DNA of 64,000 nt from a virus: the IMG/VR virus record IMGVR_UViG_3300045988_182799. One strand, 5' to 3'. Positions 1 to 41,259 of the stretch are shown piece by piece. Every line of letters begins with the position of its first letter. Within the stretch, counting starts at the first letter, position 1. The translations under genes were made by a program, and so were the position numbers. Below the pieces are notes generated by a model. The model was not told the origin of the DNA and did not search any database. It saw only the letters and a list, made by a program, of their open reading frames with translations.

Positions 1-134
1 TTGTCCAAGCGGCGCGGACAAGGCATTCGTCTTCGTGGTCATAGTTAAGGAGTTCCGCGCAAATGACCGTACTGCGAATCAACAACAGTACAATGCACGC
101 CCAGAGACAGCCGCAGGAAGCGGCATGTTGCTGG

Positions 135-210
135 TGGTGGAAATAGAGGGATTCGAACCCTCGACCCCCTGCTTGCAAAGCAGGTGCTCTCCCAGCTGAG
201 CTATATCCCC
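135..210 (-). tRNA. tRNA-Ala(UGC): tRNA-Ala (anticodon UGC)
   Basis: Reverse complement reads GGGGATATAGCTCAGCTGGGAGAGCACCTGCTTTGCAAGCAGGGGGTCGAGGGTTCGAATCCCTCTATTTCCACCA. It has a 7-bp acceptor stem, GTTCGAATC T-loop, anticodon loop TTTGCAA and an encoded CCA. Confidence 0.85.
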
Positions 211-240
211 ATGATGGCGGGGCATCCCCGCCGGACAGTT

Positions 241-633
241 TTAGGTGTACTGGAAGTCGCCGTACTGCTTGACCTCGCGCTCCAGGTGGAGCGGAATGGT
301 CTTGGTGCTTCGCTGCGTGATGTCGCTACGTGCCACCAGAGTCTCGCTTACGCCTGCCGCCTGAAGAACTTCAAACAGATTGGAAGGGCCTGTACCAGCA
401 TAGCCCGCCGTCAGTCCGTTGACACGCATTGTAAACCCATGCAGATGCGGTGCCAGGCCAGAAATGAAATCGAGTTCAACAATGACCTCGTCACTCTTAT
501 CGTTCACACGTTTGACTGAGATAGCACGGATGTTCTGGCTCCCGAAGGTCTCAATCAGTTTCTTGGCTGCCGCTGCGGTTTCAATCGTGGATGTACCTTC
601 TACATTGATAATTGCCTGCTCCATTGGAATCAT
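241..633 (-). CDS. hypothetical protein (130 aa) between tRNA-Ala and tRNA-Thr
   Basis: Intact ORF with a strong RBS (GAAAGGAGAT) immediately upstream of the ATG. No recognisable motif. Confidence 0.55.
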   Translation of the reverse strand: MIPMEQAIINVEGTSTIETAAAAKKLIETFGSQNIRAISVKRVNDKSDEVIVELDFISGLAPHLHGFTMRVNGLTAGYAGTGPSNLFEVLQAAGVSETLVARSDITQRSTKTIPLHLEREVKQYGDFQYT

Positions 634-825
634 CTCCTTTCTACTTCAAGTTGTCATGCACTGTGGCAGATAACGCTCTGCACTGCGAGGCTTTACGTTG
701 CCCATTCGTGTTCGGTTCCGGCTACGACGACTTCCGTAAGGACTTAGCCAACCGCCAACAGGTGCATGCCCCCGTTGGAAGCTTCTTGGGCGGATTCTCA
801 AAGAGCGCGTCGCCCAATCGGACCG

Positions 826-901
826 TGGAGCTTAGTGGCAGATTCGAACTGCCCGCCTGCACATTACGAGTGTGCCGCTCTGCCTAATGAGCTAACCAAG
901 C
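826..901 (-). tRNA. tRNA-Thr(CGU): tRNA-Thr (anticodon CGU)
   Basis: Reverse complement GCTTGGTTAGCTCATTAGGCAGAGCGGCACACTCGTAATGTGCAGGCGGGCAGTTCGAATCTGCCACTAAGCTCCA folds as a 76-nt cloverleaf with anticodon loop CTCGTAA. The acceptor stem has one G-U pair. Confidence 0.75.
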
Positions 902-1187
902 ATGGCAGGATGTTTTATGCTTGTTATCATCCCAAATCAGGGCAGCCAACCCTGCATCAAGCACCATCCGGCAGCCACGCCGATGGATTCTGTATTGTAC
1001 CCTCTCCGCCGTTTTCCGGTCTCATTCGCGACTGATACTGGGACTTTCGGATACTCTCAGGCACAGCACCTGTTTGCCGATTCTTTTAGAGGCTGTCCAT
1101 TGGCATTCGGACAGCGGACCACAAGTGGACCATGCTCGCTTTATTTAGTGTCGTGCGTACGGTGACAGCGACGGTGGAGCGGGCAGC

Positions 1188-1262
1188 GGGATTCATTTCT
1201 ATTCACGCCACCCATGTGGGCAGCGACAATTGCTATACCCCGCGTGGTGGGTCACGTCTGGC
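1188..1262 (-). pseudogene. decayed tRNA-like remnant
   Basis: Reverse complement begins CGCGGGGTATAGCAATTG, nearly identical to the 5' end of the tRNA-Met at 2870-2943, and ends ...GAATCCCGCTGCCCGCTCCA. It has acceptor-like termini and a T-loop-like GAATCC, but no foldable anticodon arm. Confidence 0.25.
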
Positions 1263-1279
1263 TTTCGCTTTTGCGGCCT

Positions 1280-1474
1280 TTATTTTGCTTCGCTGTTTAT
1301 GTACCCAAACCAGCAGCTTTCGCAGCCAGCGAACCCCGCGCACCCTTCCTCGTACACGTCATTCCATGGCGGACATCTGAAATTCTTTTCAAAGACTTTT
1401 ACCATGTTCTTTTTGATATCTTCCACGGGTCCGCTGAACTTCATTCCTTTTGTCAATTCTTCAAAAACCGTCAT
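1280..1474 (-). CDS. small hypothetical protein (64 aa)
   Basis: The AT-rich 5' half encodes a Lys-rich peptide (MTVFEELTKGMKFSGPVEDIKKNMVKVFEKNF...). An RBS (GGAAGGAAAG) precedes the ATG, and hairpin element 1 sits just upstream. The C-terminal third is GC-rich and may be read-through. Confidence 0.35.
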   Translation of the reverse strand: MTVFEELTKGMKFSGPVEDIKKNMVKVFEKNFRCPPWNDVYEEGCAGFAGCESCWFGYINSEAK

Positions 1475-1489
1475 TTTTCTTTCCTTCCT

Positions 1490-1514
1490 TCTCGCCGCGT
1501 GGAGGCTACCAGCG
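1490..1514. other. conserved hairpin-loop element, copy 1 (partial)
   Basis: Contains GCCGCGTGGAGGCTACCAGCG, a 15/16 match to the core shared by copies 2-6. The flanking stem is weak. Confidence 0.4.
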
Positions 1515-1523
1515 TAGGGATAT

Positions 1524-1598
1524 TGGAGGAGTATATCGGGGTCGAACCGACGTTATCTGCTTGGAGGGCAGAGGTATTAACCGTTATACGAATACTCC
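1524..1598 (-). tRNA. tRNA-Gly(UCC): tRNA-Gly (anticodon UCC)
   Basis: Reverse complement GGAGTATTCGTATAACGGTTAATACCTCTGCCCTCCAAGCAGATAACGTCGGTTCGACCCCGATATACTCCTCCA. Anticodon loop is CCTCCAA. Confidence 0.85.
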
Positions 1599-2366
1599 AC
1601 AAGATTGCGGGTGAACCCTCATTTAGCCCCGCCATGATGTTCGTTTAGGAGGTAGTCGGCCCCGAACGCCATCTTTACACCACTTGACAATCTTGCGAAT
1701 CTCATCGCTGACTATGCGTGAGAATCCAAGAAAGCGCTTAGGTGTTGGTCAACTTCAAATCTTAGAGCCCTACCGTTACTTCTCTGTCAATTCGGGCAAA
1801 CGGTTTTCGATGGGCTACGTGTGTAAGACTGCGGCTTACTTACCAGCTGCCGTGCAGCAGTCTCGCCTATACGGCTGTGTCGCGTCTGGCTGCGCCCCGG
1901 CTTTACGGGGATGCTCGTACGTCTGCATGCTTGATGGGGCGGGATTTGTTGTTTCCGAACCGTAGTTCGAGAGGAAGCACTCGTCCACACAACTTCCTGG
2001 CCTTTAGGGATACCGCTCACACCGGGAATTGTGATGCGATTCCCACGATTGAAGACTTCGCCATGTCGCGGGTATTGACCGCAACAATGTTGCCCACTGC
2101 TCACCACGAGGAGGTTGTCTTCTGAGCAGTAGCGCGGATTGTGTGGAGCAGTCCGCGCAAGCAGCTTCCGCGTATTCCCTGCTGCTTGAGGGAGCTTGTT
2201 GAGCGTCCGCCGACGCCGTACCCCGGAGGGAACGTCCAAAGGCGTTTTGCAGTACGGAAAAGTTCGGTTTAGAGCCATGAACTGGGCCAAGGACTGCTTA
2301 CCTTGTCTGGTTTGCCCTCCAGATTGGGTTGAGAGCATTCGTCAGCGACTGTAGTAATCGTTGTCC

Positions 2367-2400
2367 ACCACCCGCCGCGTGGAGGCTGTCTCATGGGTGG
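2367..2400. other. conserved hairpin-loop element, copy 2
   Basis: CCACCC-[GCCGCGTGGAGGCTGTCTCAT]-GGGTGG: a 6-bp stem enclosing the conserved 21-nt loop. Confidence 0.55.
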
Positions 2401-2523
2401 CTGGGCACGTCGGATGTTTCCGGCGTGCCCAGATAGGCGCTACCTATCGTGTCGTTCTAAGGCGGGAGCTGCCCGCCATCAGGTTTACCTGTGCATCGGA
2501 TTATCCCTTTCACTTATGCGGCC

Positions 2524-2624
2524 TGTCGGACGTAATTAGTGCATAGGCGTTCTCCTTTGTTCAGATTTTGACATCGGACGCGGTAATTACTGCATCGGAG
2601 TGCCCTCCCTGTTAGATTTCGACC
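2524..2624. repeat. two tandem degenerate ~50-nt repeats inside the ncRNA candidate
   Basis: Unit 1 is TGTCGGACGTAATTAGTGCATAGGCGTTCTCCTTTGTTCAGATTTTGACA. Unit 2 is CATCGGACGCGGTAATTACTGCATCGGAGTGCCCTCCCTGTTAGATTTCGACC. Aligned by eye at roughly 70% identity. Confidence 0.5.
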
Positions 2625-2758
2625 TGTTTAACGTCCGTGTCAGGACGTGTTCTGGATGGGTGGTGTCACACCACCGTGTTCCGTGCTTACGCGTCGCACC
2701 TGTACTCCACTATTACGCCTTATCGCGCGATTGACGTGTTCCCTTGTACTACACCCAG

Positions 2759-2835
2759 TGGCGACTCGTGCCGGACTCGAACCGGCGACCTCCAGCGTGA
2801 CAGGCTGGCGTTCTAACCATCTGAACTAACGAGCC
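2759..2835 (-). tRNA. tRNA-Asp(GUC): tRNA-Asp (anticodon GUC)
   Basis: Reverse complement GGCTCGTTAGTTCAGATGGTTAGAACGCCAGCCTGTCACGCTGGAGGTCGCCGGTTCGAGTCCGGCACGAGTCGCCA. Anticodon loop is CTGTCAC. Confidence 0.85.
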
Positions 2836-2869
2836 ATATATGACCGATTTAGCGTCGCGGCCGAGACGA

Positions 2870-2943
2870 TGGATACGGGGATGGGACTTGAACCCACAAC
2901 CACCAGCGTATGAGGCTGGTAAGCTACCATTGCTATACCCCGT
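2870..2943 (-). tRNA. tRNA-Met(CAU): tRNA-Met/Ile2 (anticodon CAU)
   Basis: Reverse complement ACGGGGTATAGCAATGGTAGCTTACCAGCCTCATACGCTGGTGGTTGTGGGTTCAAGTCCCATCCCCGTATCCA. Anticodon loop is CTCATAC. Initiator, elongator or lysidine-Ile identity cannot be decided by eye. Confidence 0.8.
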
Positions 2944-2992
2944 GTCAATAACAAGACATTGGCCGCAAGAACCTTCAAAACTTGCGTTGTCC

Positions 2993-3027
2993 ATCCCTCG
3001 CCACGCGGAGGCTGTCTTGTGAGGGAT
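2993..3027. other. conserved hairpin-loop element, copy 3
   Basis: ATCCCTC-[GCCACGCGGAGGCTGTCTTGT]-GAGGGAT: a 7-bp perfect stem with a 21-nt loop. Confidence 0.55.
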
Positions 3028-3204
3028 TCTCGGAGATTGCGCAAGGATGTGTAGAACTATACTGGTGTAGTATGATGTGCTGCAAGCAGCTACAATGCAC
3101 ATTCTCCGAGGTTGTTATTACCGTCTATCAAGTGAGGGTATGTAGCACTATAGTAGTTGTGATGTGTGTCGGGATGACACTTACAACACTTGATATTCGG
3201 TATA

Positions 3205-3280
3205 TGGCGGGTCGTACAGGGCTCGAACCTGTGACATCTTGATTAACAGTCAAGCGCTCTGCCGACTGAGCTAACGACCC
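3205..3280 (-). tRNA. tRNA-Asn(GUU): tRNA-Asn (anticodon GUU)
   Basis: Reverse complement GGGTCGTTAGCTCAGTCGGCAGAGCGCTTGACTGTTAATCAAGATGTCACAGGTTCGAGCCCTGTACGACCCGCCA. Anticodon loop is CTGTTAA. Confidence 0.85.
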
Positions 3281-3324
3281 AGAAATAAGACATTTGCCAC
3301 GGGGAGCTCAATACCCGTGTTACC

Positions 3325-3357
3325 GTCACCGCCGCGAGGAGGCTGTCTTATGGTGAC
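3325..3357. other. conserved hairpin-loop element, copy 4
   Basis: GTCACC-[GCCGCGAGGAGGCTGTCTTAT]-GGTGAC: a 6-bp perfect stem with a 21-nt loop. Confidence 0.55.
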
Positions 3358-3450
3358 ATAGCCCGCAAGATGTGTGTATAGCATCGTATCAAGAAGTTAC
3401 GATTCATCAAGCGGGATTTTGGATTTCAACGGAGGAACGATGAAAACCAA

Positions 3451-3526
3451 TGGAGCTTCCGGTGGGACTCGAACCCACAACCTACTGATTACAAGACAGT
3501 TGCTCCGCCTGTTGAGCCACAGAAGC
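3451..3526 (-). tRNA. tRNA-Thr(UGU): tRNA-Thr (anticodon UGU)
   Basis: Reverse complement GCTTCTGTGGCTCAACAGGCGGAGCAACTGTCTTGTAATCAGTAGGTTGTGGGTTCGAGTCCCACCGGAAGCTCCA. Anticodon loop is CTTGTAA; the anticodon stem has one non-WC pair at its base. Confidence 0.75.
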
Positions 3527-3571
3527 ATGGTAGTCGCAAGGAGTAAAACCTTGACGACTAATGTATTATTT

Positions 3572-3599
3572 AGTATATGCGGTTCGCACGATTCGGCAA
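3572..3599 (-). promoter_or_regulatory. sigma70-type promoter of the conserved-spacer family; likely drives the tRNA array
   Basis: Minus strand reads TTGCCG-aatCGTGCGAACCGca-TATACT, with a 16-nt spacer carrying the family core. It lies directly upstream of tRNA-Thr(UGU). Confidence 0.45.
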
Positions 3600-3621
3600 T
3601 ACAGATTATTTGAAGCACATT

Positions 3622-4308
3622 CTATATTTTGCGAATCTGCAAGTCACTGACATCTGCAATGTCTCGGTTTTCTTTCGTGACATCCTTTACCGCGCGTTTC
3701 TTTGACCAGAGAACACTCAGGACGCGATTGCGAAGGTTGTCGTCCTCGATAGTGGATGTCACTTTTACGATTTCTGACTCGCTCAAGTAGACTGTTCCAC
3801 CCTGCTGAATCATGGTCGGATACCCGTTATCACTTCTCAGGACCTTTTTATCAAGGCTATCGTAGGCGTATATCGCGTCGATAAGAAGTTCGGCCGCGAT
3901 TCCGTCCAGCTGTTCTTCCGTGATACCCTGGAAGACGAGCCAGCGGCGCATGAACGAGTCATCCGGGATACTGTCACTGTAAAGAGAGAACAGAGGAGAT
4001 ACCAGTTTGTTGCTCGAATAGCGCTCATGCTCTTCATCGACATTCAGGTTGTCCTGCCAAAGCTTCAGCATCAAGCCGTCGCCGTAGTAGACGAACGTGT
4101 CGTGAAAGAACCCGGACGAGCACACCTTGATATGGTCGATGTTCGCAACTTCCTCACGGTGGCAGAGTACAAAGCGCGTGCCTTCACTCTTGCCGTAGGT
4201 CTCATCGTCCCACTTGACCGTGACCCGTTCCAGCACAAACCTGTCGTTGAGGAGCTTCAGAACTGCTTTGATGGGAAATACTCGCCAGTCCATCAGATGT
4301 TTCTCCAT
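3622..4308 (-). CDS. hypothetical protein (228 aa), last gene of the AAA/zinc-ribbon/nuclease operon
   Basis: Intact ORF overlapping the upstream gene by 16 nt. No recognised motif. Confidence 0.55.
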   Translation of the reverse strand: MEKHLMDWRVFPIKAVLKLLNDRFVLERVTVKWDDETYGKSEGTRFVLCHREEVANIDHIKVCSSGFFHDTFVYYGDGLMLKLWQDNLNVDEEHERYSSNKLVSPLFSLYSDSIPDDSFMRRWLVFQGITEEQLDGIAAELLIDAIYAYDSLDKKVLRSDNGYPTMIQQGGTVYLSESEIVKVTSTIEDDNLRNRVLSVLWSKKRAVKDVTKENRDIADVSDLQIRKI

Positions 4309-4736
4309 TCCTTTGCTATCGGGTCGTACTCGGCCACTTCTTTTTTCGTAACCTTACCGTCCTTTTTATACAGCGTGACGCGCTGGATATAGTTGGCGGC
4401 ATTGGTATCAAGTCGGCGCATGGCTTCGGCAGAAGAGCTCGTCGTAGTGAGACTACGATAAGTCCCGCCGGAGCCCATGACGTCAGGCTCATAGTACCCA
4501 GTCTCGTAGTAGACTGCTATATCCTGTTCGTTAGGAGAAGCGGCATCCAGGATGACCTTGGAGCTTTCCTTGTTGCTACCCGCATAGGAGTTGCGGATGA
4601 TGCGAGCACCACGGTCATTCCCCTGCTGTTCATAGGCTTCGGCAATGAACTCAACGTAGGTCTTGAACTTCTGCTCGTCGCCGTCTCGATGTGCTTCAAT
4701 GAGCTTTCCGAGTGTAACTACGCCAACCACATTCAT
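4293..4736 (-). CDS. hypothetical protein (147 aa)
   Basis: Intact ORF in the operon. No recognised motif. Confidence 0.55.
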   Translation of the reverse strand: MNVVGVVTLGKLIEAHRDGDEQKFKTYVEFIAEAYEQQGNDRGARIIRNSYAGSNKESSKVILDAASPNEQDIAVYYETGYYEPDVMGSGGTYRSLTTTSSSAEAMRRLDTNAANYIQRVTLYKKDGKVTKKEVAEYDPIAKEWRNI

Positions 4737-4812
4737 TGCTTTTACTCCTCTCTTGAACTGTCTACATTATACCATTTTTGGAGTTCCGACTCGTACTGTG
4801 TAGACCAATGAT

Positions 4813-5487
4813 TCATAGATTCTTAACAAACTTACGCGTTTTTACAGGAATGAACCTGAAATGTCCAGTCTTATCTTGTTCGACTCTCCACTTCCACATG
4901 TGTCCCTGCATCCGTTCAGAATACAGCATCTGCTCGGTCGGTAAAAGCAGCCCTATGCCGTAGTATTTCGTAAGAGGTCGGCCTTTTTCGTGGTTTTCAG
5001 CAGCACGAGGAAAGGGGCGTTTTTCCTGCTTTAATTTGTATCCCGCATCGAGCAGTTCTGTGGCATAGAGCGCTGCATTTACTCGATGAAATACATATAG
5101 CATTTGGGTGCTTGAGAAGTAATAGAAGATACAGTTGGCGTTTTTATAAAGCCACCCATCTGAGTGATGGAGCGTTGACTCATTGGTGACAGGATTGCAG
5201 TTGATGACATTACCATTTTCATCAAATAGATAGGAGTCAACGGCCTGTTCCAGGAAGATGTTGCCGGTAGTGTATGTATCTGTTTTAGCATCGAGCGTTA
5301 CCGTGCGGCCATCTTTGCGATGAATCAGGAAGTCAATATCCTGTTCTTGATACGTTTTGATGCTTCTCACATCTTCGTAGCTCTCAAAGCTCAACCTTCC
5401 CAATTCGCAGCTCTTTTTTACGTAGTCAATTGCCACCTGTTCTCCGAGTTTTCCGACCGCAAGCTGGTCTTTCATGTTATAAGCCAA
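4813..5487 (-). CDS. PD-(D/E)xK-fold nuclease-like protein (YraN/Hjc-like N-terminal domain)
   Basis: N-terminus GKLGEQVAIDYV...QDIDFLIHRKDGRTVTLDAKTD matches the GxxGE...(E/D)IDLI...(D/E)xK pattern of the YraN/restriction-endonuclease-like fold. The C-terminal 120 aa are uncharacterised. Confidence 0.55.
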   Translation of the reverse strand: MAYNMKDQLAVGKLGEQVAIDYVKKSCELGRLSFESYEDVRSIKTYQEQDIDFLIHRKDGRTVTLDAKTDTYTTGNIFLEQAVDSYLFDENGNVINCNPVTNESTLHHSDGWLYKNANCIFYYFSSTQMLYVFHRVNAALYATELLDAGYKLKQEKRPFPRAAENHEKGRPLTKYYGIGLLLPTEQMLYSERMQGHMWKWRVEQDKTGHFRFIPVKTRKFVKNL

Positions 5488-5493
5488 GAAGTA

Positions 5494-6234
5494 TCACCTC
5501 CGCACTTTGCGGCAGGCGGGGCACTTAGGACCATACTTGCATACGGTAAAGAGCAACGGCGTCCATTCTTCGTCCTTGCCATAGCCGCAATCGGGACATA
5601 CCAAAGCAATGCGTTCACCGCTTCCGGCGGTCAGTTCATCGGGCCGAAACTTATTGGCGGTCGGATGCCACATAGCTGCAATCTGAGGGTATCCAACGCT
5701 GATGATAGGCTTCGTCGTGCATTTGCGAATTCGCTTCATCCGGTTGTGAGAAGCATTCAACCTGGCGCATTGCGGGCAGCCCGTATGATTCACGCCGCTG
5801 CCGCAAGCGAAAGCCAGGAGCGGATGCCACTCTCCGTTTTGACCATAGCCGCAGGTCTTGCAGACAAGATAGACATGCAGACCGCTGCCGGATGTGATTT
5901 GGTCAGGCTGGATGGTATTTAGCGTAGGATGCCACTGTTCGCCAATTTCAGGATGAACTGTAGCTACATCATTCACACCTTTGACCACGATTCGTCCAGC
6001 ACAAACCGGACAGCCGCCTTTTGTACGACAGACAGAAGAAAGCACCGGCCGCCATTCACCGTTTTTTCCGTATCCACACCGTGGACAAATCAAGGCAATG
6101 CGACGGCCGCTTCCACACGTGATTTCATCAGGACCACAGTCATTGGCAGTCGGGTGCCACATGGAAGCAATCTCAGGATGTTCTTCCGCTACCGTGCCGC
6201 GAGGCTCATAGAGCTTAATCTCAAATTCACGCAT
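5494..6234 (-). CDS. protein made of three tandem zinc-ribbon repeats (WHPT.N...GSG...CxxCGYG.NGEW...GCPxC)
   Basis: Three roughly 80-aa repeats each carry the W-H-P-T-x-N, GSG, C-x2-C-GYG and C-P-x-C signatures, i.e. 12 Cys in four-Cys clusters. The start overlaps the AAA ATPase stop by 8 nt. Confidence 0.7.
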   Translation of the reverse strand: MREFEIKLYEPRGTVAEEHPEIASMWHPTANDCGPDEITCGSGRRIALICPRCGYGKNGEWRPVLSSVCRTKGGCPVCAGRIVVKGVNDVATVHPEIGEQWHPTLNTIQPDQITSGSGLHVYLVCKTCGYGQNGEWHPLLAFACGSGVNHTGCPQCARLNASHNRMKRIRKCTTKPIISVGYPQIAAMWHPTANKFRPDELTAGSGERIALVCPDCGYGKDEEWTPLLFTVCKYGPKCPACRKVRR

Positions 6235-7138
6235 CCTGGTTCTCCTTCTCTTGCTGTTCGATGACCCAGCTTACAATATGGTCCGTGCAAGCTTTCGTTA
6301 CATTGCTGGGCGTATAATTGTGGTCAATGTGAGAGAGCAGGTCTTCAATTTCTTTCTTGCTCGCTGTATAGCCAACCGAAATGAAGAACTTCTCGCATAA
6401 GTCATGCGCAGACTGAGTATCCAGCATGCGAACACGATGAAGGAAGCTGAACCGACGGAACAGTGCAGCGTCAAGCTGGTCTTCCCTGTTCGTGGTTCCG
6501 ATAAGAATAACGTCATTGGGCAGCCGGTCAAGTTCCTGCATCAGAGCAATCGTCACGCGGCTCATCTCTGCTACATCGTCTCTGCCGCCGCGCTTCATGC
6601 CGATAGCATCGATTTCGTCGAGGCACAACACACAGGGGCTGCGTGTAGCATAGTCAAAGACCAGACCAATGTTCTGCTGTGTCTTGCCAAGAGCCGAGCT
6701 GATAAGACCGGAAAATTTGAGATATACGAACGGCAGGTCTGCTTTGTGGGCAATGTATCTTGCCAGTTCGGTTTTACCAGTTCCAGGCTCACCGCTCAGG
6801 AGCAAAGAACTGGTATAGTGAACGCCCATTTCTTTGAGTTTGAGGGACGCTTTTCTCGTTTTGAGAATCTTTTCGATGACTGCTTTCTCCGATTCACGAA
6901 TCAGGAATCTCTGCTCCGGGAAATCAGATACATCTTCTGCCACCAAAAGGCCCTGCATGTTGAACGGCAATTCAATGAATCGCGGTTCAGCATTGTTGAG
7001 CTTTGCCAGGCAGTTCGTCTTGAATTGCTCATCCCTCGCAGCGGTGATACTGTTCAGAATGATTTTTGCTTGCATCTGTGCTTTGCGAATGTCGCCTTCT
7101 GCTACATAGCGAAGGAGCATGCGGTTGTTATCATTCAT
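6227..7138 (-). CDS. classical AAA ATPase (single AAA domain)
   Basis: Walker A LSGEPGTGKTELA, Walker B VLCLDEIDAIG, sensor-1 IGTTN and the arginine-finger region DAALFRRF. An N-terminal ~100 aa domain is of unknown function. Confidence 0.85.
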   Translation of the reverse strand: MNDNNRMLLRYVAEGDIRKAQMQAKIILNSITAARDEQFKTNCLAKLNNAEPRFIELPFNMQGLLVAEDVSDFPEQRFLIRESEKAVIEKILKTRKASLKLKEMGVHYTSSLLLSGEPGTGKTELARYIAHKADLPFVYLKFSGLISSALGKTQQNIGLVFDYATRSPCVLCLDEIDAIGMKRGGRDDVAEMSRVTIALMQELDRLPNDVILIGTTNREDQLDAALFRRFSFLHRVRMLDTQSAHDLCEKFFISVGYTASKKEIEDLLSHIDHNYTPSNVTKACTDHIVSWVIEQQEKENQDA

Positions 7139-7195
7139 GGTTTATTTACCTCTATAAATGAAAAGACCCACCAAACGGCAGGTCTTGATTCTTTG

Positions 7196-7873
7196 TTATT
7201 TATTTGCAAAGTAGGTGTCTGTGTCAGCTCTCGCGGCTCTCGCCTCAATATCAGCTTCGTTCAGATACCGAACGCTTTTGAATGTGTAGTTGGTATCGCC
7301 CTTTGTGCGAACATAGATGCCGCGCTTTGCGTATGTCAGTCCAGGCGTCATATCGCTGTCAGCTGTAGTCAGCAGTTTGATAATCTGATGCTCACCTGCA
7401 TCATCAACCACGCAAAGACTCACATCCGCATTGCCGTCACATGGGTAATCTTCCGGCAGCTTCACTTCGTAATCCACCACTACGAGTTCCGGGTTTTCGA
7501 TGCAATCTCGCAGCTTATCAAGAGCTGATTCTTCAGTTCGCAGTACAGAAAGAGAATTACTGAGCGCAATGGTGTTGCTGATGTAATCTTCATTTTCTGT
7601 TTCGGTAGTGATTTTAGTGATGCGCATTTCAATGTCATGCCATCGCCCATCGGTCAAAGAGCCATTTGAAACTGTTCCCCAGTCGCCGAGAGCGATAAGG
7701 TTATTGTTCTCGCCTCGCACCGGTTCTGTTTCCATACTGGTTTGAGCTGGAAGGCCTAGCGTTTCGCTGCTTTCAGCCGTTGCCACAGGGAAATCGGCGG
7801 GCAGCGTGCTGACGGGATAGCAGGCAGTCAAGGCAACAGCAAGCGCCGGAATAATCAAAAGCAGCTTTCTCAT
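7196..7873 (-). CDS. lipoprotein (225 aa)
   Basis: Signal peptide MRKLLLIIPALAVALTAC with a lipobox Cys. ATGA overlap with the upstream HTH gene suggests translational coupling. Confidence 0.65.
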   Translation of the reverse strand: MRKLLLIIPALAVALTACYPVSTLPADFPVATAESSETLGLPAQTSMETEPVRGENNNLIALGDWGTVSNGSLTDGRWHDIEMRITKITTETENEDYISNTIALSNSLSVLRTEESALDKLRDCIENPELVVVDYEVKLPEDYPCDGNADVSLCVVDDAGEHQIIKLLTTADSDMTPGLTYAKRGIYVRTKGDTNYTFKSVRYLNEADIEARAARADTDTYFANK

Positions 7874-8394
7874 TGTTCCTTCGCCGCCTTCTTTGTTTTC
7901 TTTCTTCCCCTTTTACGGTGGATTCCAGCTTTGTGCATGATGTCGTATCCACATGTGGTACAGAAACCATACTCCTTAGCAAGTGCCTGAATTGACTTCT
8001 GCGGGTTCTCTCTGACTGCTTGGATATACCGTTCCTCTCTTTTCAGGCGTTCTTTCTTTGCCTTTGTCATCACATCAGAATCCCGCTGGCAGGTATATTT
8101 CGGGTCTACCTGCTTGATGACGCTATAAATCGTTGCGCGGTTCATGTTGTATTCTTTCGCCAGCTCAACGGCCGTTACACCCTTGCTGTACTTGCGAGCG
8201 ATTTCTTTGTCTCGTTGTTTCTTCCATTTGTGGAAGTCCATAGAGCGTTCGTTACGACTCTCTTCACGAGATACTCTATAGCAGATATGGGTTGATACAT
8301 GATGCTTTGCGGCTGCGTCTTTGATAGACATACCACTCTTCAAGTCCTCGACAATGAGTCGGTTTCTTTCTGACATAGCTTCTTTGTCAATCAA
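7870..8394 (-). CDS. DNA-binding protein with three helix-turn-helix-like segments
   Basis: Repeated segments (SIKDAAAKHHVS..., VTAVELAKEYNMNRATIYSVIKQ, SIQALAKEYGFCTTCGY) resemble sigma70 region-4 / Mor-type HTH. First gene of the operon, behind promoter a. Confidence 0.6.
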   Translation of the reverse strand: MIDKEAMSERNRLIVEDLKSGMSIKDAAAKHHVSTHICYRVSREESRNERSMDFHKWKKQRDKEIARKYSKGVTAVELAKEYNMNRATIYSVIKQVDPKYTCQRDSDVMTKAKKERLKREERYIQAVRENPQKSIQALAKEYGFCTTCGYDIMHKAGIHRKRGRKKTKKAAKEQ

Positions 8395-8482
8395 TGTTGA
8401 GTCCTCCTTGCAAATAAAAAAGCAGGCTCTTAAAAGAACCTGCTTTCGTGGTCGTTAATACACTTTTTGGTCTACAATATTC

Positions 8483-8510
8483 AGTTTACTCAATTCGCAC
8501 AAACGCGCAA
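8483..8510 (-). promoter_or_regulatory. promoter a of the conserved-spacer family
   Basis: Minus strand TTGCGC-gttTGTGCGAATTGag-TAAACT. Confidence 0.5.
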
Positions 8511-8530
8511 GAAGGCAACATGAAACGGTT

Positions 8531-9024
8531 TTATTTCCATTCCATATATGGAATATGTGCCAGCATAAGCAAACACACTTCAAGATTTGATTCGATGTAA
8601 CGAGCAATTGTATCGAATCGTTGATTCAGACTCAATGACTCAAAAGTGTAGCCGGATTCAGAGAGAATCATTTCCTCGCTGCTGGTATACATAACATTGA
8701 GCATCGCCGTCAATGCTTGCAGGATTTCCGTATCGCAGTCCTTCTTTGTGAAGAAGAAATATCGTGTTGAGTTCCCATCGGTGATGCCGATTTTGCCTTC
8801 ATAGCCATCAAAACTTGCAAGGTCGCCGAATAGGCTGCAAGCAATATAGCCAAGCTTTTCTTCAACCGGCACAGTGACCCACAAAGGATAACGCTCGTTT
8901 GGCTGAAAATCAGCCTTGCCACAGTTATACTCCCACTCAATGAAAGCACGAATACTGATAACTTCTCCGTACGGCGTAATGAATTTGACGTTTTCCAATT
9001 TACTCACCTCGCTTGTGCGCCACA
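8531..9024 (-). CDS. hypothetical protein; probable start at internal ATG ~9024 (possibly leaderless)
   Basis: The track ORF 8531-9175 overlaps the upstream gene by 74 nt, and its first 50 codons run through promoter b. An ATG lies ~7 nt downstream of the TACAAT -10 with no SD, consistent with a leaderless mRNA. Confidence 0.45.
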
Positions 9025-9030
9025 TGATTT

Positions 9031-9058
9031 TATTGTATTCAATTCGCAATGAAAAGCA
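9031..9058 (-). promoter_or_regulatory. promoter b of the conserved-spacer family
   Basis: Minus strand TTGCTT-ttcATTGCGAATTGaa-TACAAT. Confidence 0.5.
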
Positions 9059-9101
9059 AAAAGAGGGGCCGCCTGGCGGCAGCCCCTCGAATGCAGTGCG
9101 A

Positions 9102-9611
9102 TTAGTATTTTCCGGTTTGAATGCCCGGGATGGCTTCGATTTCCTTGAGGATGTTTTCGAAGTTGTGCATGACATACGAAGAAATCTCGCACATCTTCTC
9201 CTCGTGGTTCAGGGTGTCGAATTTGGCAAAGGCGCTGTTTTCCTCGTAGGCCGCTTTGACCTCTGCGTAAATACGCTCGAATACATTCGCGGCTTTAATA
9301 GCAACCTTGTCTGCGTAAAACGGGCACCAGACCTCTTTGGTGGTGTTGGCGGTTTTGATGAGGATAGGCTCTCCCCTGTCGTCGCCATTGCCCAGCATTT
9401 GGAACAATGACATAGACATAGCCTGCATCATCTGGGACGGAGTCAACTCCTCCCATTTGGTGTCGGGCTCGGCAATCTTGCAGCTGTTGAACTTGGCGTA
9501 TGCACAGCCGGTCTCGGCCTGGTAGTTCTTGTCGCGGGTTTCTGCATAGAGAAATTCGGCAACATCTTTGGTCGGCATGGATTTGCCCATCAGAATAACA
9601 GTTTTGCTCAT
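9102..9611 (-). CDS. hypothetical protein (169 aa)
   Basis: Intact ORF. No recognised motif. Confidence 0.55.
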   Translation of the reverse strand: MSKTVILMGKSMPTKDVAEFLYAETRDKNYQAETGCAYAKFNSCKIAEPDTKWEELTPSQMMQAMSMSLFQMLGNGDDRGEPILIKTANTTKEVWCPFYADKVAIKAANVFERIYAEVKAAYEENSAFAKFDTLNHEEKMCEISSYVMHNFENILKEIEAIPGIQTGKY

Positions 9612-9635
9612 GGTGGTATTCTCCTTTTTGAAAAA

Positions 9636-11069
9636 TTACATCGTCGGACTTTGCGGCAGCCACTGCTGCGGATAAGAACGAAGCAGATTCTTCGGCACAC
9701 AATCATTCAGTGCAGAGTTCTCAGCAAGTGCCATGTCGATGATGTAGTAATCATCACCGTTGCGCATCACATCAACACTCCACTGCCCTGTCAGCTCTAC
9801 GTGCGGGATAACCTTCTTCAGCTCATCCAGAACAATCTGGACACTCTCCTTGTAGCGCTTTTCCAGCACATCCTCGTGCATCTGGTAGATAACGTAGTCG
9901 TGCCGTTCCTGCGGACTGCTCACTTCCTGGAATTTGCCCTTCATCACATCGCTGCGCCAGTAAGGACTCACTCCGAGAATTGTCTTGGCATCGAAGTCCA
10001 CAAACACGCGGTATTCAGTGTGCAGCGGCAGACCGTTATAGATAGTCGGGTTTCCTTCCTTGTCTTTGATATACTCTCTGACAACCCATTCATTGGTCGT
10101 ATTTGCCCCATAGAAGCAATGTCCATTGGTGGGCGCTGCCATAGAACAGGTCAGGTGGTTCAGAAACAAGAAATACTCGCCTATCTCACGGACCTCTTGC
10201 GGTTCCTGGACATGAGCATTGCGAAACTCGTACTTGGAAGAGTAGGTGCCGGTTTTGATAAAGTAGTCGCCGTCATCGTTCAGATGGAAGATTCTCTTGC
10301 AGTAACGGTTCACAATCGCCTTCGTCACGGGATTCAGCGTCTCAAAGCCGAGTCTCGTGAGTTGGAGCATCGTGATGGGCACATGTAGGAGTTTCGTCTC
10401 CGGCACCTTGAAGAACTTATTACCGTCTAAGCCTTTAACCAACGGCGGCAGCCAGTAGCTCATGGTGTTCGGATTCATTTCGAGCATCTGATATGTGATG
10501 TCATCGAGGTCCAGAATATCGAGGCCCTGGCGGAACATGTGATACTGCATCGCCTTGTTTCGGTCATTTCTCGCATCGAGATACGCCTTGTAGTGGCTGA
10601 GCAGCACCTTGTAAGATGGCTCAGAAATGTCAATCTTCATCAGATTGCCGGTCAGCTGCGGCCGAAGTTCTTCCGGGAACTTCTTGAGGTCCTCATTCGT
10701 AACCGGCGGAAGGATATGCTGGTTAGTAGAATACCGCACGTAATATCCACCACGCTCCGGCTCATAGATGTACATTCTGGTGCCATCCATCAGCTCGGCA
10801 ACAATTTGGTCAATGAGATTGTCCAGCTCTTTCGTAAAAGGCACGCTCTTATCGAGCATTGCCTTTACGGTTGCGGTATCCCACTGGAGAAGATTGTCAG
10901 ACAGTGTCCCACTTTCCAGCACTTGGGTTTTGTAGACATCCTCAAAGGTTTTAAGAGCATCAGGGCTTGTTTTCAGCATCGATGCAAGCTCTTCATAGGA
11001 AAACGGCTCATTTTCTTTCTTAGATAGCATTGCACCGATTTGAGCAAGCATGTCATTGAACTGAGCCAT
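9636..11069 (-). CDS. hypothetical protein (477 aa), possibly with a C-terminal ATP-grasp-like fold
   Basis: The C-terminal region (...FIKTGTYSSKYEF...EYRVFVDFDAKTILGVSPYW...) resembles the ATP-grasp strand pattern. Weak, by-eye only. Confidence 0.55.
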   Translation of the reverse strand: MAQFNDMLAQIGAMLSKKENEPFSYEELASMLKTSPDALKTFEDVYKTQVLESGTLSDNLLQWDTATVKAMLDKSVPFTKELDNLIDQIVAELMDGTRMYIYEPERGGYYVRYSTNQHILPPVTNEDLKKFPEELRPQLTGNLMKIDISEPSYKVLLSHYKAYLDARNDRNKAMQYHMFRQGLDILDLDDITYQMLEMNPNTMSYWLPPLVKGLDGNKFFKVPETKLLHVPITMLQLTRLGFETLNPVTKAIVNRYCKRIFHLNDDGDYFIKTGTYSSKYEFRNAHVQEPQEVREIGEYFLFLNHLTCSMAAPTNGHCFYGANTTNEWVVREYIKDKEGNPTIYNGLPLHTEYRVFVDFDAKTILGVSPYWRSDVMKGKFQEVSSPQERHDYVIYQMHEDVLEKRYKESVQIVLDELKKVIPHVELTGQWSVDVMRNGDDYYIIDMALAENSALNDCVPKNLLRSYPQQWLPQSPTM

Positions 11070-11401
11070 CAGTAGCCCTCCTCATCGGAAATCTCATCTG
11101 CCGTCAGGTCTTCGTTGAAGTCCACGGTCAAATCAGCAACCGGCGCGTCCAGCTTTTTAAGGCCGAACGACTCATAGAAGCCATCAGGAATCTCGGCCGC
11201 ATCACCCCAGTTGAAGTAGCCACTGTTGAGTCGCAGCGTCTTTTTGCCTTCTTCGGTATCCAGATAAGACTTTACGGCGTTGCGTACTTGCGTGAGAACG
11301 TCATACGTTTTTTCAGAGTCATACTCAAACTGCAACATGGTCGTCTCGGTGCTGAATGGGCCTATGATTTCGTTTGCTGCGATAGTAAAAATTTTAGTCA
11401 T
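11069..11401 (-). CDS. small highly acidic protein (110 aa)
   Basis: Rich in Asp/Glu and ends ...DEISDEEGY. Its stop overlaps the downstream gene start. Sits behind promoter c. Confidence 0.55.
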   Translation of the reverse strand: MTKIFTIAANEIIGPFSTETTMLQFEYDSEKTYDVLTQVRNAVKSYLDTEEGKKTLRLNSGYFNWGDAAEIPDGFYESFGLKKLDAPVADLTVDFNEDLTADEISDEEGY

Positions 11402-41199: not shown

Positions 41200-41259
41200 G
41201 GCTTTCTCCCCTTCTTTTTCGTTCTGAAGACTATTTGCCAGGAGCCTTTCCCGTTGCCC

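Follow-up and report, generated by a model that had tools for sequence, protein, structure and literature searches.

What is a dense run of tRNA genes, interleaved with hairpins, doing on an element catalogued as a virus? This question is raised by positions 135-3526 (minus strand) of a 64,000-nt stretch of DNA, the window, where an earlier note had described a seven-gene tRNA array plus a decayed tRNA on a conjugative element. The segment makes up the third nearest the promoter of an island of 22 same-strand tRNA genes that spans ~10.5 kb. We are highly confident that the array is true cargo of a conjugative element and, jointly, that the hairpins are HDV-like ribozymes. The composite explanation –cargo, ribozymes, transcript processing, and tRNA supply– is favored with more modest confidence. 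The features are listed in Table 1.

Table 1. Features in the tRNA island and elsewhere in the window, with the evidence for each
Feature	Positions	Strand	Evidence and remarks
Promoter-like site	3572-3599	minus	Predicted; sigma-70-like TTGCCG-16-TATACT, 9/12 consensus match
tRNA-Thr(UGU)	3451-3526	minus	ARAGORN; Rfam 63.8 bits; CCA encoded
HDV-like ribozyme Rz1	3286-3357	minus	RF02682 29.0 bits; own covariance model 33.2 bits
tRNA-Asn(GUU)	3205-3280	minus	ARAGORN; Rfam 72.0 bits; CCA; G73, canonical anticodon loop
HDV-like ribozyme Rz2	2952-3027	minus	Rfam 41.5 bits, E 6.6e-6; model R1 44.3 bits
CAU-anticodon tRNA	2870-2944	minus	ARAGORN; Rfam 55.0 bits
tRNA-Asp(GUC)	2759-2835	minus	ARAGORN; Rfam 68.7 bits; CCA; anticodon loop invariant across lineages
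HDV-like ribozyme Rz3, J4/2 GACGAA subtype	2330-2401	minus	Rfam 33.7 bits; R1 34.5 bits
HDV-like ribozyme Rz4, long P4	2049-2130	minus	Rfam 40.6 bits, E 1.1e-5; R1 31.9 bits (5' part)
Structured non-coding RNA, ~334 nt	1599-1932	minus	Conservation, covariation; ends at tRNA-Gly 5' end
tRNA-Gly(UCC)	1524-1598	minus	ARAGORN; Rfam 54.6 bits; C33 instead of U33
64-aa ORF	1280-1474	minus	Strong ribosome-binding site
Pseudo-tRNA, decayed paralogue of CAU tRNA	1173-1244 (approx.)	minus	Repeat D7; alignment to CAU tRNA
tRNA-Thr(CGU)	826-901	minus	ARAGORN; Rfam 59.4 bits; CCA encoded
130-aa (probably 127-aa) protein	241-633	minus	Most conserved protein of the island
tRNA-Ala(UGC)	135-210	minus	ARAGORN; Rfam 70.9 bits; G3:U70, CCA encoded
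HDV-like ribozyme	41226-41296	minus	R1 44.3 bits; abutting hairpin -15.3 kcal/mol
HDV-like ribozyme	38697-38766	minus	R1 39.7 bits; abutting hairpin -13.2 kcal/mol

Both ARAGORN and Rfam RF00005 found exactly seven tRNA genes in the window, all on the minus strand and where the earlier note had placed them, with RF00005 scores of 54.6-72.0 bits (E 5e-9 to 9e-14), above the gathering score of 29. All seven encode CCA and present the expected bacterial identity elements, and the stems of their orthologues are maintained across lineages by compensatory changes. The number seven itself was an artefact of the window edge: tRNA-Ala is the last tRNA inside it, and the island runs on leftwards for 15 more. 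Contig L004 is 99.93% identical to the window over 14,308 nt, which identifies it as the same element. On this element (99.93% identical, 237-kb contig), 22 same-strand tRNA genes lie within ~10.5 kb; 16 are visible in L004 and 22 in L129. The full set covers 14 amino acids and includes seven U34 tRNAs reading A-ending codons.

The CAU tRNA is unusual in its C1xA72 mismatch, A11:U24, U73, and C38. Its acceptor end is initiator-like, and its anticodon stem lacks the three G-C pairs; the mismatch and a pyrimidine at 73 are kept across lineages, with compensatory stem changes. The decayed tRNA said to share its 5' end with this gene was confirmed, the first ~29 nt being 83% identical. It is a relic, because neither ARAGORN nor Rfam, even at E≤10, finds it.

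For the promoter, a plausible sigma-70-like site is present ~45 nt upstream of tRNA-Thr(UGU), within the 95-nt gap following a 228-aa gene, and a sister lineage presents a stronger one (TTGACG-17-TATAAT) at the homologous position. However, it does not belong to a promoter "family", as had been proposed: the sequence has no repeats within the window.

The hairpin elements between the tRNAs do exist and are not a chance occurrence (GGAGGCTGTCT, 6 matches vs. 1.04 expected), but they are not simple hairpins. On sequence and covariation evidence, they are HDV-like self-cleaving ribozymes, the family that includes theta ribozymes. The window contains six, of which four are inside the array. RF02682 matches are confined to the tRNA strand and reach 29-41.5 bits in the window, the four array ribozymes all scoring below the gathering score of 44. 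This score is exceeded by two further copies that the element carries just beyond the window (50.2 and 45.3 bits). Among 56 distinct ribozymes, pairing was 97.9% for P1, 100% for P3, 98% for P4, and 68% for the P2 pseudoknot, with double changes at 7/7 P1 pairs. Double-change cells numbered 214 vs. 67±11 in shuffles (0/500) in an alignment that was fitted to the model and holds many closely related sequences, and the signal was lost when partners were slid. The catalytic C is found in 55/56, the lone exception being a truncated alignment, and conservation extends to the P1.1 partners CC and GG. Two array ribozymes begin with A1 and not with the usual G1.

Individual copies fit this fold. Rz1, with a predicted cut 5' of G3357, has P1 GUCACC/GGUGAC, P3 GCC/GGC, P2 AAGACA/UGUCUU, and J4/2 GCAAA. 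The Rz2 cleavage site is adjoined by a long hairpin (arms 3029-3043/3096-3110, inverted repeat I11), and at Rz3 a -24 kcal/mol upstream hairpin ends at the cleavage site (z = -4.9). The Rz3 orthologue in the 92%-identity lineage differs in P4 and J4/2 and retains the fold. Rz4, with P2 GAAGAC/GUCUUC and J4/2 GCGAA, lies 117 nt upstream of the conserved 334-nt RNA. The two copies outside the array are located in the 131-nt gap that separates a flotillin-like gene (41331-43109) from its neighbour, and between genes 38784-39380 and 37753-38640. Overall, a hairpin of -13 kcal/mol or lower stops 0-1 nt short of the cleavage site in 8/10 ribozymes, compared to 3.2% of random 45-mers; the remaining two have longer-range stems.

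The position of the ribozymes relative to the tRNAs recurs. Rz1 ends 5 nt upstream of tRNA-Asn and Rz2 7 nt upstream of the CAU tRNA, and the gap is 4 nt at tRNA-Ser just outside the window. Among 140 distinct ribozyme contexts, 47 show this leader position –at tRNA-Thr(UGU), Asn, CAU, and Ser– and 23 the theta position. The ribozyme-tRNA units at Asn and Ser are orthologous and kept between lineages, and the Rz1 orthologue keeps its 5-nt spacing in the sister lineage.

Other features lie between the tRNAs. The 334-nt RNA presents 79-94% nucleotide identity over all lineages, with neither codon periodicity nor a conserved ORF, and is single-copy in at least 119 IMG/VR contigs. Compensatory changes occur in 18-19 of its 80-82 predicted pairs (18 vs. 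9.0±1.8 pairs and 45 vs. 14.7±3.3 cells in shuffles, 0/500), and no Rfam family matched at E≤10. The 130-aa protein, always between tRNA-Thr(CGU) and tRNA-Ala, keeps 82-90% amino acid identity across lineages where neighbor proteins show 42-61%. Its 93 homologues are all inside this element family, it has no Pfam or PHROG match, and its structure model (pLDDT 50) was unusable. The 64-aa ORF is restricted to the lineage of the window and the 92% relative, and family searches gave no match.

Taken together, we think it rather probable, from sequence and predicted folds, that the ribozymes split a long island transcript. Transcription from the 3599-3572 promoter would yield long precursors of the strand that holds nearly all genes, and each ribozyme would fold co-transcriptionally and cut at its own 5' end. 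HDV chemistry leaves a 2',3'-cyclic phosphate on the upstream product and a 5'-OH on the downstream one. With a hairpin at every cut, the upstream fragment would end hairpin-capped and the downstream one would start with a compact ribozyme fold; the ribozymes would therefore act as punctuation, or insulators, dividing the precursor into defined, protected units. A general punctuation role is supported by further copies between protein genes and within the T4SS operon. A ribozyme 4-7 nt before a tRNA (Asn, CAU, Ser) would persist as a structured 5' leader until removed by host RNase P. At the tRNA 3' ends, host trimming should suffice given the encoded CCA. Rz4 on one side and RNase P cleavage at tRNA-Gly on the other would free the 334-nt RNA. 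Alternatively, the ribozymes may serve 3'-end formation in general, their leader position being incidental, as Rz3 and Rz4 adjoin no tRNA.

As to what the tRNAs are for, we give roughly even chances to a broad supplement, with which a 48%-GC plasmid could be expressed with less reliance on the tRNAs that its higher-GC or varied hosts provide. Codon compensation by simple matching, as first suggested, fails because the cognate codons are not those preferred by the element's genes (RSCU: TTA 0.21, TCA 0.64, CAA 0.72, GGA 0.82). As a secondary or alternative role, the tRNAs may replace ones attacked by host or competitor systems. The earlier note had argued this from composition (Asn, Asp, Thr, and Met tRNAs being nuclease targets), and that argument loses force because the full island holds 22 tRNAs for 14 amino acids. 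Still, the anticodon loops, which the earlier note proposed to inspect, give this role partial support: U33 is near-universal in tRNAs, and the window tRNA-Gly carries C33. C33 and U33 alternate between lineages on several tRNA-Gly backbones with compensating stems, and U33C or position-32 changes recur in Gly, CAU, and Asn tRNAs on otherwise conserved backbones; the Asp loop is invariant. A conserved (p)ppApp-hydrolase-like HD protein gene embedded in the island, just outside the window, also gives partial support to anti-defence.

The carrier, an element of human-gut Bacillota, exceeds 237 kb and encodes a T4SS. The conjugative nature claimed for it was upheld by a Gram-positive-type module: a VirB4/TraG P-loop protein inside the window, T4 coupling protein (T4SS-DNA_transf/TrwB) and M23 peptidase genes just past its right edge, and a sortase gene on the element. 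Rep_3, ParA, and ParB are located outside the window. The closest plasmid VirB4 proteins are those of Subdoligranulum and Vescimonas megaplasmids, and a second VirB4 cluster (47-49% identity) is found on contigs up to 295 kb. Among 185,579 species genomes, the sole relative lies on a 150-kb Gemmiger formicilis contig. The hosts are most probably near Gemmiger/Subdoligranulum (Oscillospiraceae). IMG/VR carries the window's contigs as viral genomes (UViGs); yet none of 84 ORFs matched phage structural, packaging, or lysis functions, and Hodor megaplasmids are likewise labelled viral. A chromosomal tRNA operon was rejected: a 237-kb contig encloses the island, many related elements show it in synteny, and apart from the Gemmiger contig it has no relative in the 185,579 species genomes.

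Compared to known systems, published theta ribozymes cleave at tRNA 3' ends, whereas the ribozymes at tRNA-Asn, the CAU tRNA, and tRNA-Ser here end 4-7 nt upstream of the tRNA 5' ends. At tRNA-Thr(UGU), a sister lineage retains the theta arrangement. In most related lineages, this tRNA has 73 nt, lacks CCA, and has directly after it, at gap 0, a ribozyme that would cut exactly at the discriminator base. The carrier is most probably a "Hodor"-type conjugative megaplasmid, matched on shared features and not by sequence comparison: the recently described Hodor gut megaplasmids (211-389 kb, GC 47.1%) encode VirB4/VirD4 and sortases and are called viral by geNomad (PMC12934698), and GC (48.3% in the window), VirB4, sortase, and viral label are alike. 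Finally, tRNA arrays are uncommon on conjugative elements, as noted earlier, but already on record: the conjugative megaplasmid pMP7017, for which a tRNA-supply role was argued, carries 20 tRNA genes (PMC10832533), and this island 22.

The seven minus-strand tRNA genes that the earlier note read at the left end of the window are genuine: ARAGORN and Rfam agree on them at exactly the same coordinates, with 54.6-72.0 bits against a gathering score of 29. CCA is encoded in all seven, and they present bacterial synthetase identity elements (G3:U70 in Ala, G73 in Asn and Asp, U73 in Gly). The decayed tRNA reported with them was confirmed as well; its 5' part is a copy of the acceptor and D arm of the Met/Ile-CAU tRNA, hereafter the CAU tRNA (83% over 29 nt), and neither ARAGORN nor Rfam recognised it as a tRNA. 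As for the "family promoter" said to precede the array, a sigma-70-like site is present, and the sister lineage –a diverged relative with a syntenic tRNA island– has a near-consensus TTGACG-17-TATAAT at the homologous position, but the promoter region has no repeated copy in the window.

The seven-gene array is the window-edge cut of an island three times larger. The 237,531-nt contig L004, 99.93% identical to the window over 14,308 nt, carries the island on past the left edge: tRNA-Ser comes first, two protein genes next, and then a compact cluster of Gln, Lys, Asn, four Leu, and Trp tRNAs. An IMG/VR copy of the same element (L129) adds Glu, Phe, Tyr, Glu, and two Ser. As seen in L129, the full island spans about 10.5 kb and has 22 tRNA genes, all on one strand and covering 14 amino acids; the window's share is 7 genes in 3.4 kb. 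A tRNA array unit reportedly needs some 20 tRNA genes or more, at a density near 2 per kb, and the 22 genes in 10.5 kb of L129 qualify as one. In the distal cluster, a small hairpin (cgYYcGGCAGnnCGUCAnCUGYCACU) recurs in the spacers of 28-31 nt that follow CCA. Of the four Leu tRNAs there, three have short variable arms and measure just 77-80 nt, an unusual form for bacterial tRNA-Leu, and the Leu-UAA tRNA lacks an encoded CCA. The features are located in the table.

Locations of the features discussed (window positions unless a contig locus is named)
Feature	Location	Strand	Remarks
Ribozyme Rz1	3357→3286	minus	RF02682 match
Ribozyme Rz2	3027→2952	minus	RF02682 match
Ribozyme Rz3	2401→2335	minus	RF02682 match
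Ribozyme Rz4	2130→2049	minus	RF02682 match
Intergenic HDV-like ribozyme	41296→41226	minus	own covariance model
Intergenic HDV-like ribozyme	38766→38697	minus	own covariance model
Operon HDV-like ribozyme	L120 7103-7180		beyond right edge, in conjugation operon after coupling-protein gene
Operon HDV-like ribozyme	L120 8417-8485		beyond right edge, in conjugation operon after coupling-protein gene
Module plus hairpin before tRNA-Ser	L004 14350-14398, 14617-14665; L134 9500-9555		directly upstream of ribozymes
Sigma-70-like site	3599→3572		
CAU tRNA	2870-2944	minus	
Pseudo-tRNA	~1173-1244	minus	
Distal tRNA cluster	L004 19352-19766		
Spacer, Rz4 to tRNA-Gly	2048→1599	minus	
334-nt RNA core	1932→1599	minus	directly before tRNA-Gly(UCC)
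Segment after tRNA-Asp	2643-2758	minus	
130-aa ORF	241-633	minus	
183-aa ORF	1787-2338		spurious
117-aa ORF	2749-3102		spurious
261-aa HD_4 protein	L004 14832-15617		~520-1300 nt left of window position 1, directly after tRNA-Ser
961-aa lipoprotein	L004 15757-18642		inside tRNA island
DUF4379 protein	5494-6234	minus	~2-3.6 kb upstream of island (with AAA ATPase)
AAA ATPase	6227-7138	minus	
Protein with ParB-like DGQHR motif	14912-15805		
UvrD-like helicase	17742-20570		
RlaP nucleotidyltransferase	21013-22020	minus	
Y-family polymerase (IMS)	45436-46376	minus	
Calcineurin-like phosphoesterase	52522-53364	minus	
Calcineurin-like phosphoesterase	53361-54149	minus	adjacent to the preceding one
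Metallo-beta-lactamase-fold protein			in window
Mor-like regulators			in window
Flotillin-like protein			in window

We tentatively read this island as a self-processing megaplasmid RNA operon, with hairpin-paired ribozyme leaders and a new class of RNA of about 334 nt, and we regard this as quite possible. The "hairpin elements" previously described among the tRNAs are indeed in the array; however, they are not plain hairpins but HDV-like self-cleaving ribozymes, with cleavage activity predicted. A permissive Rfam scan of positions 1-4400 gave four matches to RF02682, the Faecalibacterium prausnitzii HDV ribozyme, on the tRNA strand only. They score 29.0-41.5 bits, below the family threshold of 44, whereas two copies of the same element 90-430 nt past the left edge reach 50.2 and 45.3. 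We seeded our own covariance model with these two above-threshold copies and aligned the others with Infernal; MAFFT alignments put the helices out of register and were left out of the model. The model recovered all six island copies (Rz1-Rz6, the last two left of the window), two window copies between protein genes, and two copies in the conjugation operon past the right edge. Each of the two intergenic ribozymes and the two in the conjugation operon lies behind a hairpin just past the upstream stop codon.

Three of the island ribozymes lie just before a tRNA: the gap is 5 nt from the end of Rz1 to tRNA-Asn, 7 nt from that of Rz2 to the CAU tRNA, and 4 nt from that of Rz6 to tRNA-Ser. The preceding tRNAs lie 93, 177, and 357 nt upstream of the window cuts, with CCA already encoded, and no window copy cuts within ±5 nt of a tRNA 3' end, the criterion for theta ribozymes. 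In the sister lineage, tRNA-Thr(UGU) ends at the discriminator base and ribozyme G1 comes directly next (gap 0, no CCA), which is theta geometry and recurs in 23 distinct contexts. The same syntenic island also has ribozyme-5 nt-tRNA-Asn and ribozyme-7 nt-tRNA-Ser units; leader-position ribozymes are conserved between the two lineages. Since the sister lineage has theta geometry in the syntenic island, the window's lineage appears to have swapped a theta ribozyme for an encoded CCA. Altogether, we collected 140 distinct contexts that are not phylogenetically independent: 47 in leader position (a ribozyme 3-14 nt before tRNA-Thr(UGU), Asn, CAU, or Ser), the 23 theta contexts, 45 elsewhere in tRNA islands, and 25 away from tRNAs.

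A second regularity lies on the other side of the cut. In eight of the ten element ribozymes, the cut is preceded at 0-1 nt by the end of a hairpin of -13 to -24 kcal/mol, compared to 3.2% of random same-strand 45-mers; Rz1 and Rz2 present longer-range stems instead, ending 3 and 1 nt ahead of the cut. A conserved module, GUGGCGAAAnCGGCUGCGG, followed by a hairpin lies directly upstream of the ribozymes before tRNA-Ser and is common to the lineages. By the established HDV chemistry, cleavage would leave a hairpin end with a 2',3'-cyclic phosphate on the upstream product and a 5'-OH on a compact ribozyme fold on the downstream one. Judging from this arrangement, we infer that the ribozymes would punctuate or insulate the transcript, and that RNase P would remove the ribozyme where a tRNA comes next. 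Such tRNA-leader ribozymes would act as natural "insulator" punctuation, distinct from theta 3'-end processing, and a theta ribozyme and an encoded CCA would seem to be interchangeable solutions in evolution, one per lineage. The element also encodes an RlaP nucleotidyltransferase and two calcineurin-like phosphoesterases, which are speculative candidates for handling cyclic-phosphate and 5'-OH ends.

The ribozymes might instead only form the 3' ends of the upstream RNAs, their position before tRNAs being a by-product of tight packing with no role in tRNA maturation. An upstream hairpin adjoins every copy, and no tRNA comes after Rz3, Rz4, or Rz5, which make up half of the island copies, or after any copy between protein genes. 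For theta ribozymes, forming 3' ends is the published role (PMC10879173). Against this, a distance of 3-14 nt to the downstream tRNA is kept at four different tRNAs and in different lineages whereas the upstream distance ranges from 68 to 491 nt, and the window tRNAs upstream of ribozymes encode their CCA and end 93-357 nt from the cut. We consider this explanation somewhat unlikely.

The second component of the proposed operon is the 334-nt RNA. All lineages share the Rz4-to-tRNA-Gly spacer at 79-94% identity; its variable positions show no codon phase (71/70/68), its indels are not multiples of three, and no ORF in it is conserved across lineages. Within the 334-nt core, 80-82 pairs are predicted and 18-19 of them present compensatory changes (18 compared to 9.0±1.8 after shuffling, 0/500; slid controls gave 0-6). 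The 5' third is nearly invariant, the RNA always ends at tRNA-Gly, and in one lineage a ribozyme directly adjoins the core. It occurs as one copy per contig in at least 119 IMG/VR contigs and is more conserved than the island proteins. Rfam searches of window 1-4400 and 1560-2100, including the GOLLD and ROOL covariance models, gave no match to it at E≤10. In the proposed operon, the RNA would be released between the ribozyme cut and the RNase P cut at tRNA-Gly.

Other parts of the island are conserved too. Right behind tRNA-Asp, a stretch of ~115 nt shows about 92% identity among several diverged lineages and may be another conserved non-coding segment. The 130-aa ORF is 82-90% identical across lineages, compared to 42-61% for its neighbours, and is restricted to this element family; it has an invariant GYxGTGP-like motif, no recognisable domain match, and a structure prediction with a pLDDT of just 50. 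The 961-aa lipoprotein, with many Cys-containing repeats, has homologues 55-64% identical at 71 IMG/VR loci –at times two per contig– and one of 50% identity in Gemmiger formicilis MCC627. We rejected the 183-aa and 117-aa ORFs as spurious: both overlap ribozyme(s) or tRNA(s), and the former is conserved as nucleotides only, with frame shifts. A plus-strand GGAGG-7 nt-ATG was also discarded as a mark of small genes, as the frames are not conserved and one has just 3 codons.

Regarding the purpose of the tRNAs, orthologues keep perfect stems across lineages through compensatory changes, and thus the island tRNAs are under selection. The earlier note had argued for anti-defence from the composition of the seven, which is unsafe because the complete island has 22 tRNAs for 14 amino acids. 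Its other suggestion, that the tRNAs compensate for the codon usage of the element's own genes, gained no support as a simple match: in 49 reliable element genes (15,108 codons, GC3 0.56) the cognate codons are not the preferred ones, with RSCU values of 0.21 for TTA, 0.64 for TCA, 0.72 for CAA, 0.82 for GGA, and 0.91 for AAA. U34, reading A-ending codons, is found in 7 of the 22 island tRNAs; a host with ~58% GC, for example Gemmiger, would use few of these codons. The island tRNAs may thus compensate for the tRNA pools of such hosts.

The anticodon loops had been singled out as the place to look for escape from nucleases, and they gave a divided answer. Position 33 of tRNA-Gly(UCC) is C in the window and alternates between U and C among lineages, even on near-identical backbones; the second tRNA-Asn, beyond the window, also has C33, and position 32 varies in both Thr tRNAs. 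In the CAU tRNA, the C1×A72 mismatch, A11:U24, a pyrimidine at 73, and C38 are conserved across lineages, and the sister lineage has C33. Compared to bacterial initiator features (C1×A72, A11:U24, three G-C anticodon-stem pairs, and A73), the first two are present, CCAGC/GCUGG forms the anticodon stem, and U or C occupies position 73. Conversely, tRNA-Ala and tRNA-Asp are invariant across lineages, and the anticodon loop is fully canonical in five of the seven window tRNAs. Selection on the loops is suggested by these substitutions, though not decisively.

On this basis, the tRNAs could mainly serve counter-defence, replacing or out-competing host tRNAs that anticodon nucleases or tRNA-targeting toxins hit on plasmid entry, with loop variants that would escape recognition. 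Phage T5 tRNAs escape anticodon nucleases by loop mutations in this way, and the U33C and position-32 changes recur here on different, otherwise conserved tRNA backbones. Moreover, the HD_4 protein, encoded in the island of all lineages, has a (p)ppApp hydrolase as its best solved relative (7SMG, E 5.9e-28). Small alarmone hydrolases can undo RelA/SpoT-type toxins, including ones acting on tRNA 3' ends, and the HD_4 protein may be a counter-toxin or act on tRNA ends. The "RNA repair" type of RlaP and the two metallophosphoesterases would also fit. However, 22 genes over 14 amino acids are a broad set rather than a targeted one, most window loops are canonical, neither a nuclease target nor a defence system was identified, and C33 could equally be tolerated drift. 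Counter-defence as the main purpose is, in our view, unlikely.

The carrier of the island is a conjugative element, as the earlier note proposed. A VirB4/TraG-type ATPase and a sortase are encoded in the window, with a coupling protein and an M23 peptidase past its right edge, and nearly all window ORFs lie on the minus strand. The nearest plasmid VirB4 proteins, at 37-39% identity, belong to megaplasmids of Subdoligranulum variabile and Vescimonas fastidiosa. The S. variabile megaplasmid (OY725878.1, 247 kb), the closest cultured one, has no tRNAs and no ribozymes in its whole sequence. A near-identity DNA search of window 1-12000 against phage and plasmid collections gave tRNA-length matches only, and the 393-aa end gene has no record in a look-up. 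Among 185,579 species genomes, an island protein has its sole relative in Gemmiger formicilis, on a 150-kb contig whose 17.5-kb locus has neither tRNAs nor ribozymes. The pair of the DUF4379 protein –three treble-clef zinc-finger repeats– and the AAA ATPase is kept in all copies of the element. The Y-family polymerase gene seems truncated after 234 aa and is overlapped by a downstream YspA/SLOG-like ORF, so a frameshift or a split gene may be present.

A huge phage or phage-plasmid carrying an ordinary phage tRNA array with theta ribozymes would explain why IMG/VR lists the element and its many relatives, all as "viral" contigs (UViGs) of 20-389 kb. Theta ribozymes have been reported almost only in Caudoviricetes (PMC10879173), and several ORFs match PHROG families of unknown function and Mor-like "late activators". 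Nevertheless, no capsid, portal, terminase, tail, or lysis family was matched among 84 ORFs, and the 64 kb and its flanks show no such gene, whereas VirB4, coupling protein, M23 hydrolase, and sortase are all present. Exactly such elements, without TerL, were found to be miscalled as viral in the study of Hodor, conjugative human-gut megaplasmids (PMC12934698). Thus, a phage carrier is very unlikely.

The copies might also be inactive relics, or DNA hairpins of the strand transferred in conjugation rather than RNA. Single-stranded DNA hairpins do serve conjugative elements, the window copies are under the Rfam gathering score, and two copies start with A1 instead of G1. The alignment of 56 distinct family sequences argues otherwise. 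Pairing reaches 97.9% in P1, where each of the seven pairs shows double-sided changes, 100% in P3, and 98.4% in P4; it is 68% in the P2 pseudoknot, which is not in the model and hence more loosely aligned. Double-change cells number 214 compared to 67±11 after shuffling (0/500), and the signal is lost when partners are slid, in an alignment that is fitted to the model and in which many of the 56 sequences are related. The J4/2 catalytic C is found in 55 of 56 sequences, the exception being a truncated alignment of Rz4, whose true J4/2 is GCGAA; the P1.1 partners are CC in 54 and GG in 51. The predicted nested double-pseudoknot fold (P1, P1.1, P2, P3, P4) is thus supported by covariation, and a plain DNA hairpin is disfavoured because it needs neither this covariation nor an invariant C and P1.1. 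Besides, all copies are sense to transcription and intergenic, and orthologues alter P4 but keep the fold. We consider relics or DNA hairpins highly improbable.

Integration sites are commonly tRNA genes, but an ordinary chromosomal tRNA operon beside an integrated element is hardly credible: the island is internal to a 237-kb contig with same-strand element genes on both sides, is ordered identically in many samples (>99.9% identity), with synteny extending to diverged lineages, includes no rRNA or housekeeping genes, and adjoins a gene whose 228-aa protein has no relative in a GTDB scan of 185,579 species genomes.

Each ingredient of this island has a precedent –megaplasmid tRNA arrays, theta ribozymes, large RNAs near tRNA islands, and Hodor plasmids– whereas for their combination and for the leader geometry no precedent was found. 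Hodor (Yuan et al., bioRxiv Feb 2026) are megaplasmids of 211-389 kb and GC 47.1% (G1) or 44.6% (G2), with several sortases, VirD4, and a VirB4 that is ~48% identical between the two groups, the groups being defined at ≥90% nucleotide identity. They consistently receive a viral label from geNomad and VirSorter2 and hardly occur in plasmid databases (PMC12934698). Our element similarly comes from the human gut on a 237.5-kb contig listed as a UViG, with VirB4, a VirD4-type coupling protein, and a sortase. The window has a GC content of 48.3%, a second VirB4 cluster is 47-49% identical on contigs up to 295 kb, and relatives are scarce in plasmid databases. Since the window fits every Hodor feature tested, we regard it as a probable Hodor, in a comparison by features rather than by sequence. 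Further Hodor features are Rep_3, ParA/ParB/ParM, a MOBH-like HD relaxase with a separate helicase, a SecYEG module, and a giant surface protein of >7300 aa, which lie beyond the window and the other loci covered; the window itself encodes a UvrD-like helicase and a protein with a ParB-like DGQHR motif. The Hodor paper mentions tRNAs, ribozymes, and non-coding RNAs nowhere (PMC12934698), and such an island would thus be new to the description of these plasmids.

If this reading is correct, Hodor would gain an RNA-gene layer of 22 tRNAs, at least eight ribozymes, and one unknown RNA, the last a candidate for studies like those revealing the ROOL and GOLLD nanocages. Small self-cleaving ribozymes would be more than a phage trick for tRNA 3' ends: they would give giant gut plasmids a general means to split same-strand transcripts into stable tRNA, conjugation-mRNA, and structured-RNA units. 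Two routes to tRNA ends, ribozyme cut plus CCA addition and encoded CCA, would have been swapped between sister lineages. Many "isolated" HDV-like ribozymes would acquire a testable function, and engineered ribozyme insulators a natural counterpart. Part of the "phage" theta-ribozyme catalogue would really be plasmids, a warning that catalogues from viral databases mix plasmids with phages.

Theta ribozymes (Kienbeck et al. 2024) are minimal HDV-like ribozymes next to tRNAs, described from gut phage contigs after searching IMG/VR; 4.5% of the tRNAs at their cuts encode CCA, the carriers were classed as Caudoviricetes, and ~42% of the published copies are "isolated" ones that lie in non-coding DNA in the sense direction (PMC10879173). 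Our ribozymes share the fold and core sequence, the human gut, and the association with tRNA genes, and Rz3, Rz4, and the intergenic copies resemble the isolated ones. Unlike theta ribozymes, none in the window cuts at a tRNA 3' end, and Rz1, Rz2, and Rz6 (the last just outside) end 4-7 nt before tRNA 5' ends instead. The window tRNAs all encode CCA, the carrier has a conjugation system and no phage genes, and neither recoding nor a suppressor tRNA is involved. With a P4 of 15-40 nt, some copies may not fit the theta "minimal" definition, a motif with short L4 and J1/2. The element's viral-labelled IMG/VR contigs may already be counted among the published "phage" theta hits. The words "upstream" and "leader" are absent from the theta paper (PMC10879173), and our literature search found no report of a ribozyme as tRNA leader.

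The best-matching Rfam family, RF02682, comes from F. prausnitzii, an organism in the same bacterial neighbourhood as the likely hosts. That ribozyme sits upstream of a chromosomal metabolic gene, whereas the context here is a tRNA island and plasmid operons.

Among tRNA-rich plasmids, pMP7017 is a conjugative Bifidobacterium gut megaplasmid with ~20 tRNA genes for 12 amino acids in tandem units that are highly transcribed, accompanied by a tmRNA and a manA motif, and the array was interpreted as a means of fitting the tRNA pool to the plasmid's genes (PMC10832533). It has tRNAs for the rare codons GGA, CTT, and TCA, which the island likewise serves. However, there is no DNA similarity, the phylum is different, no ribozymes are reported there, and its companion RNAs belong to known families, unlike the 334-nt RNA. 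GOLLD and ROOL are large structured mobile-element RNAs of unknown function, "often near tRNA islands" and at times joined covalently to a tRNA (PMC12286853). The 334-nt RNA likewise adjoins a tRNA, tRNA-Gly, but it is shorter (334 nt compared to about 580 and more than 800) and is flanked by a self-cleaving ribozyme.

Finally, in RiboJ-type insulators and in ribozyme-flanked tRNA or gRNA arrays, an engineered ribozyme trims the upstream context and leaves a defined structured 5' end. The arrangement described here differs in being natural and HDV-like, with the ribozyme staying on the downstream product and paired with an upstream hairpin.
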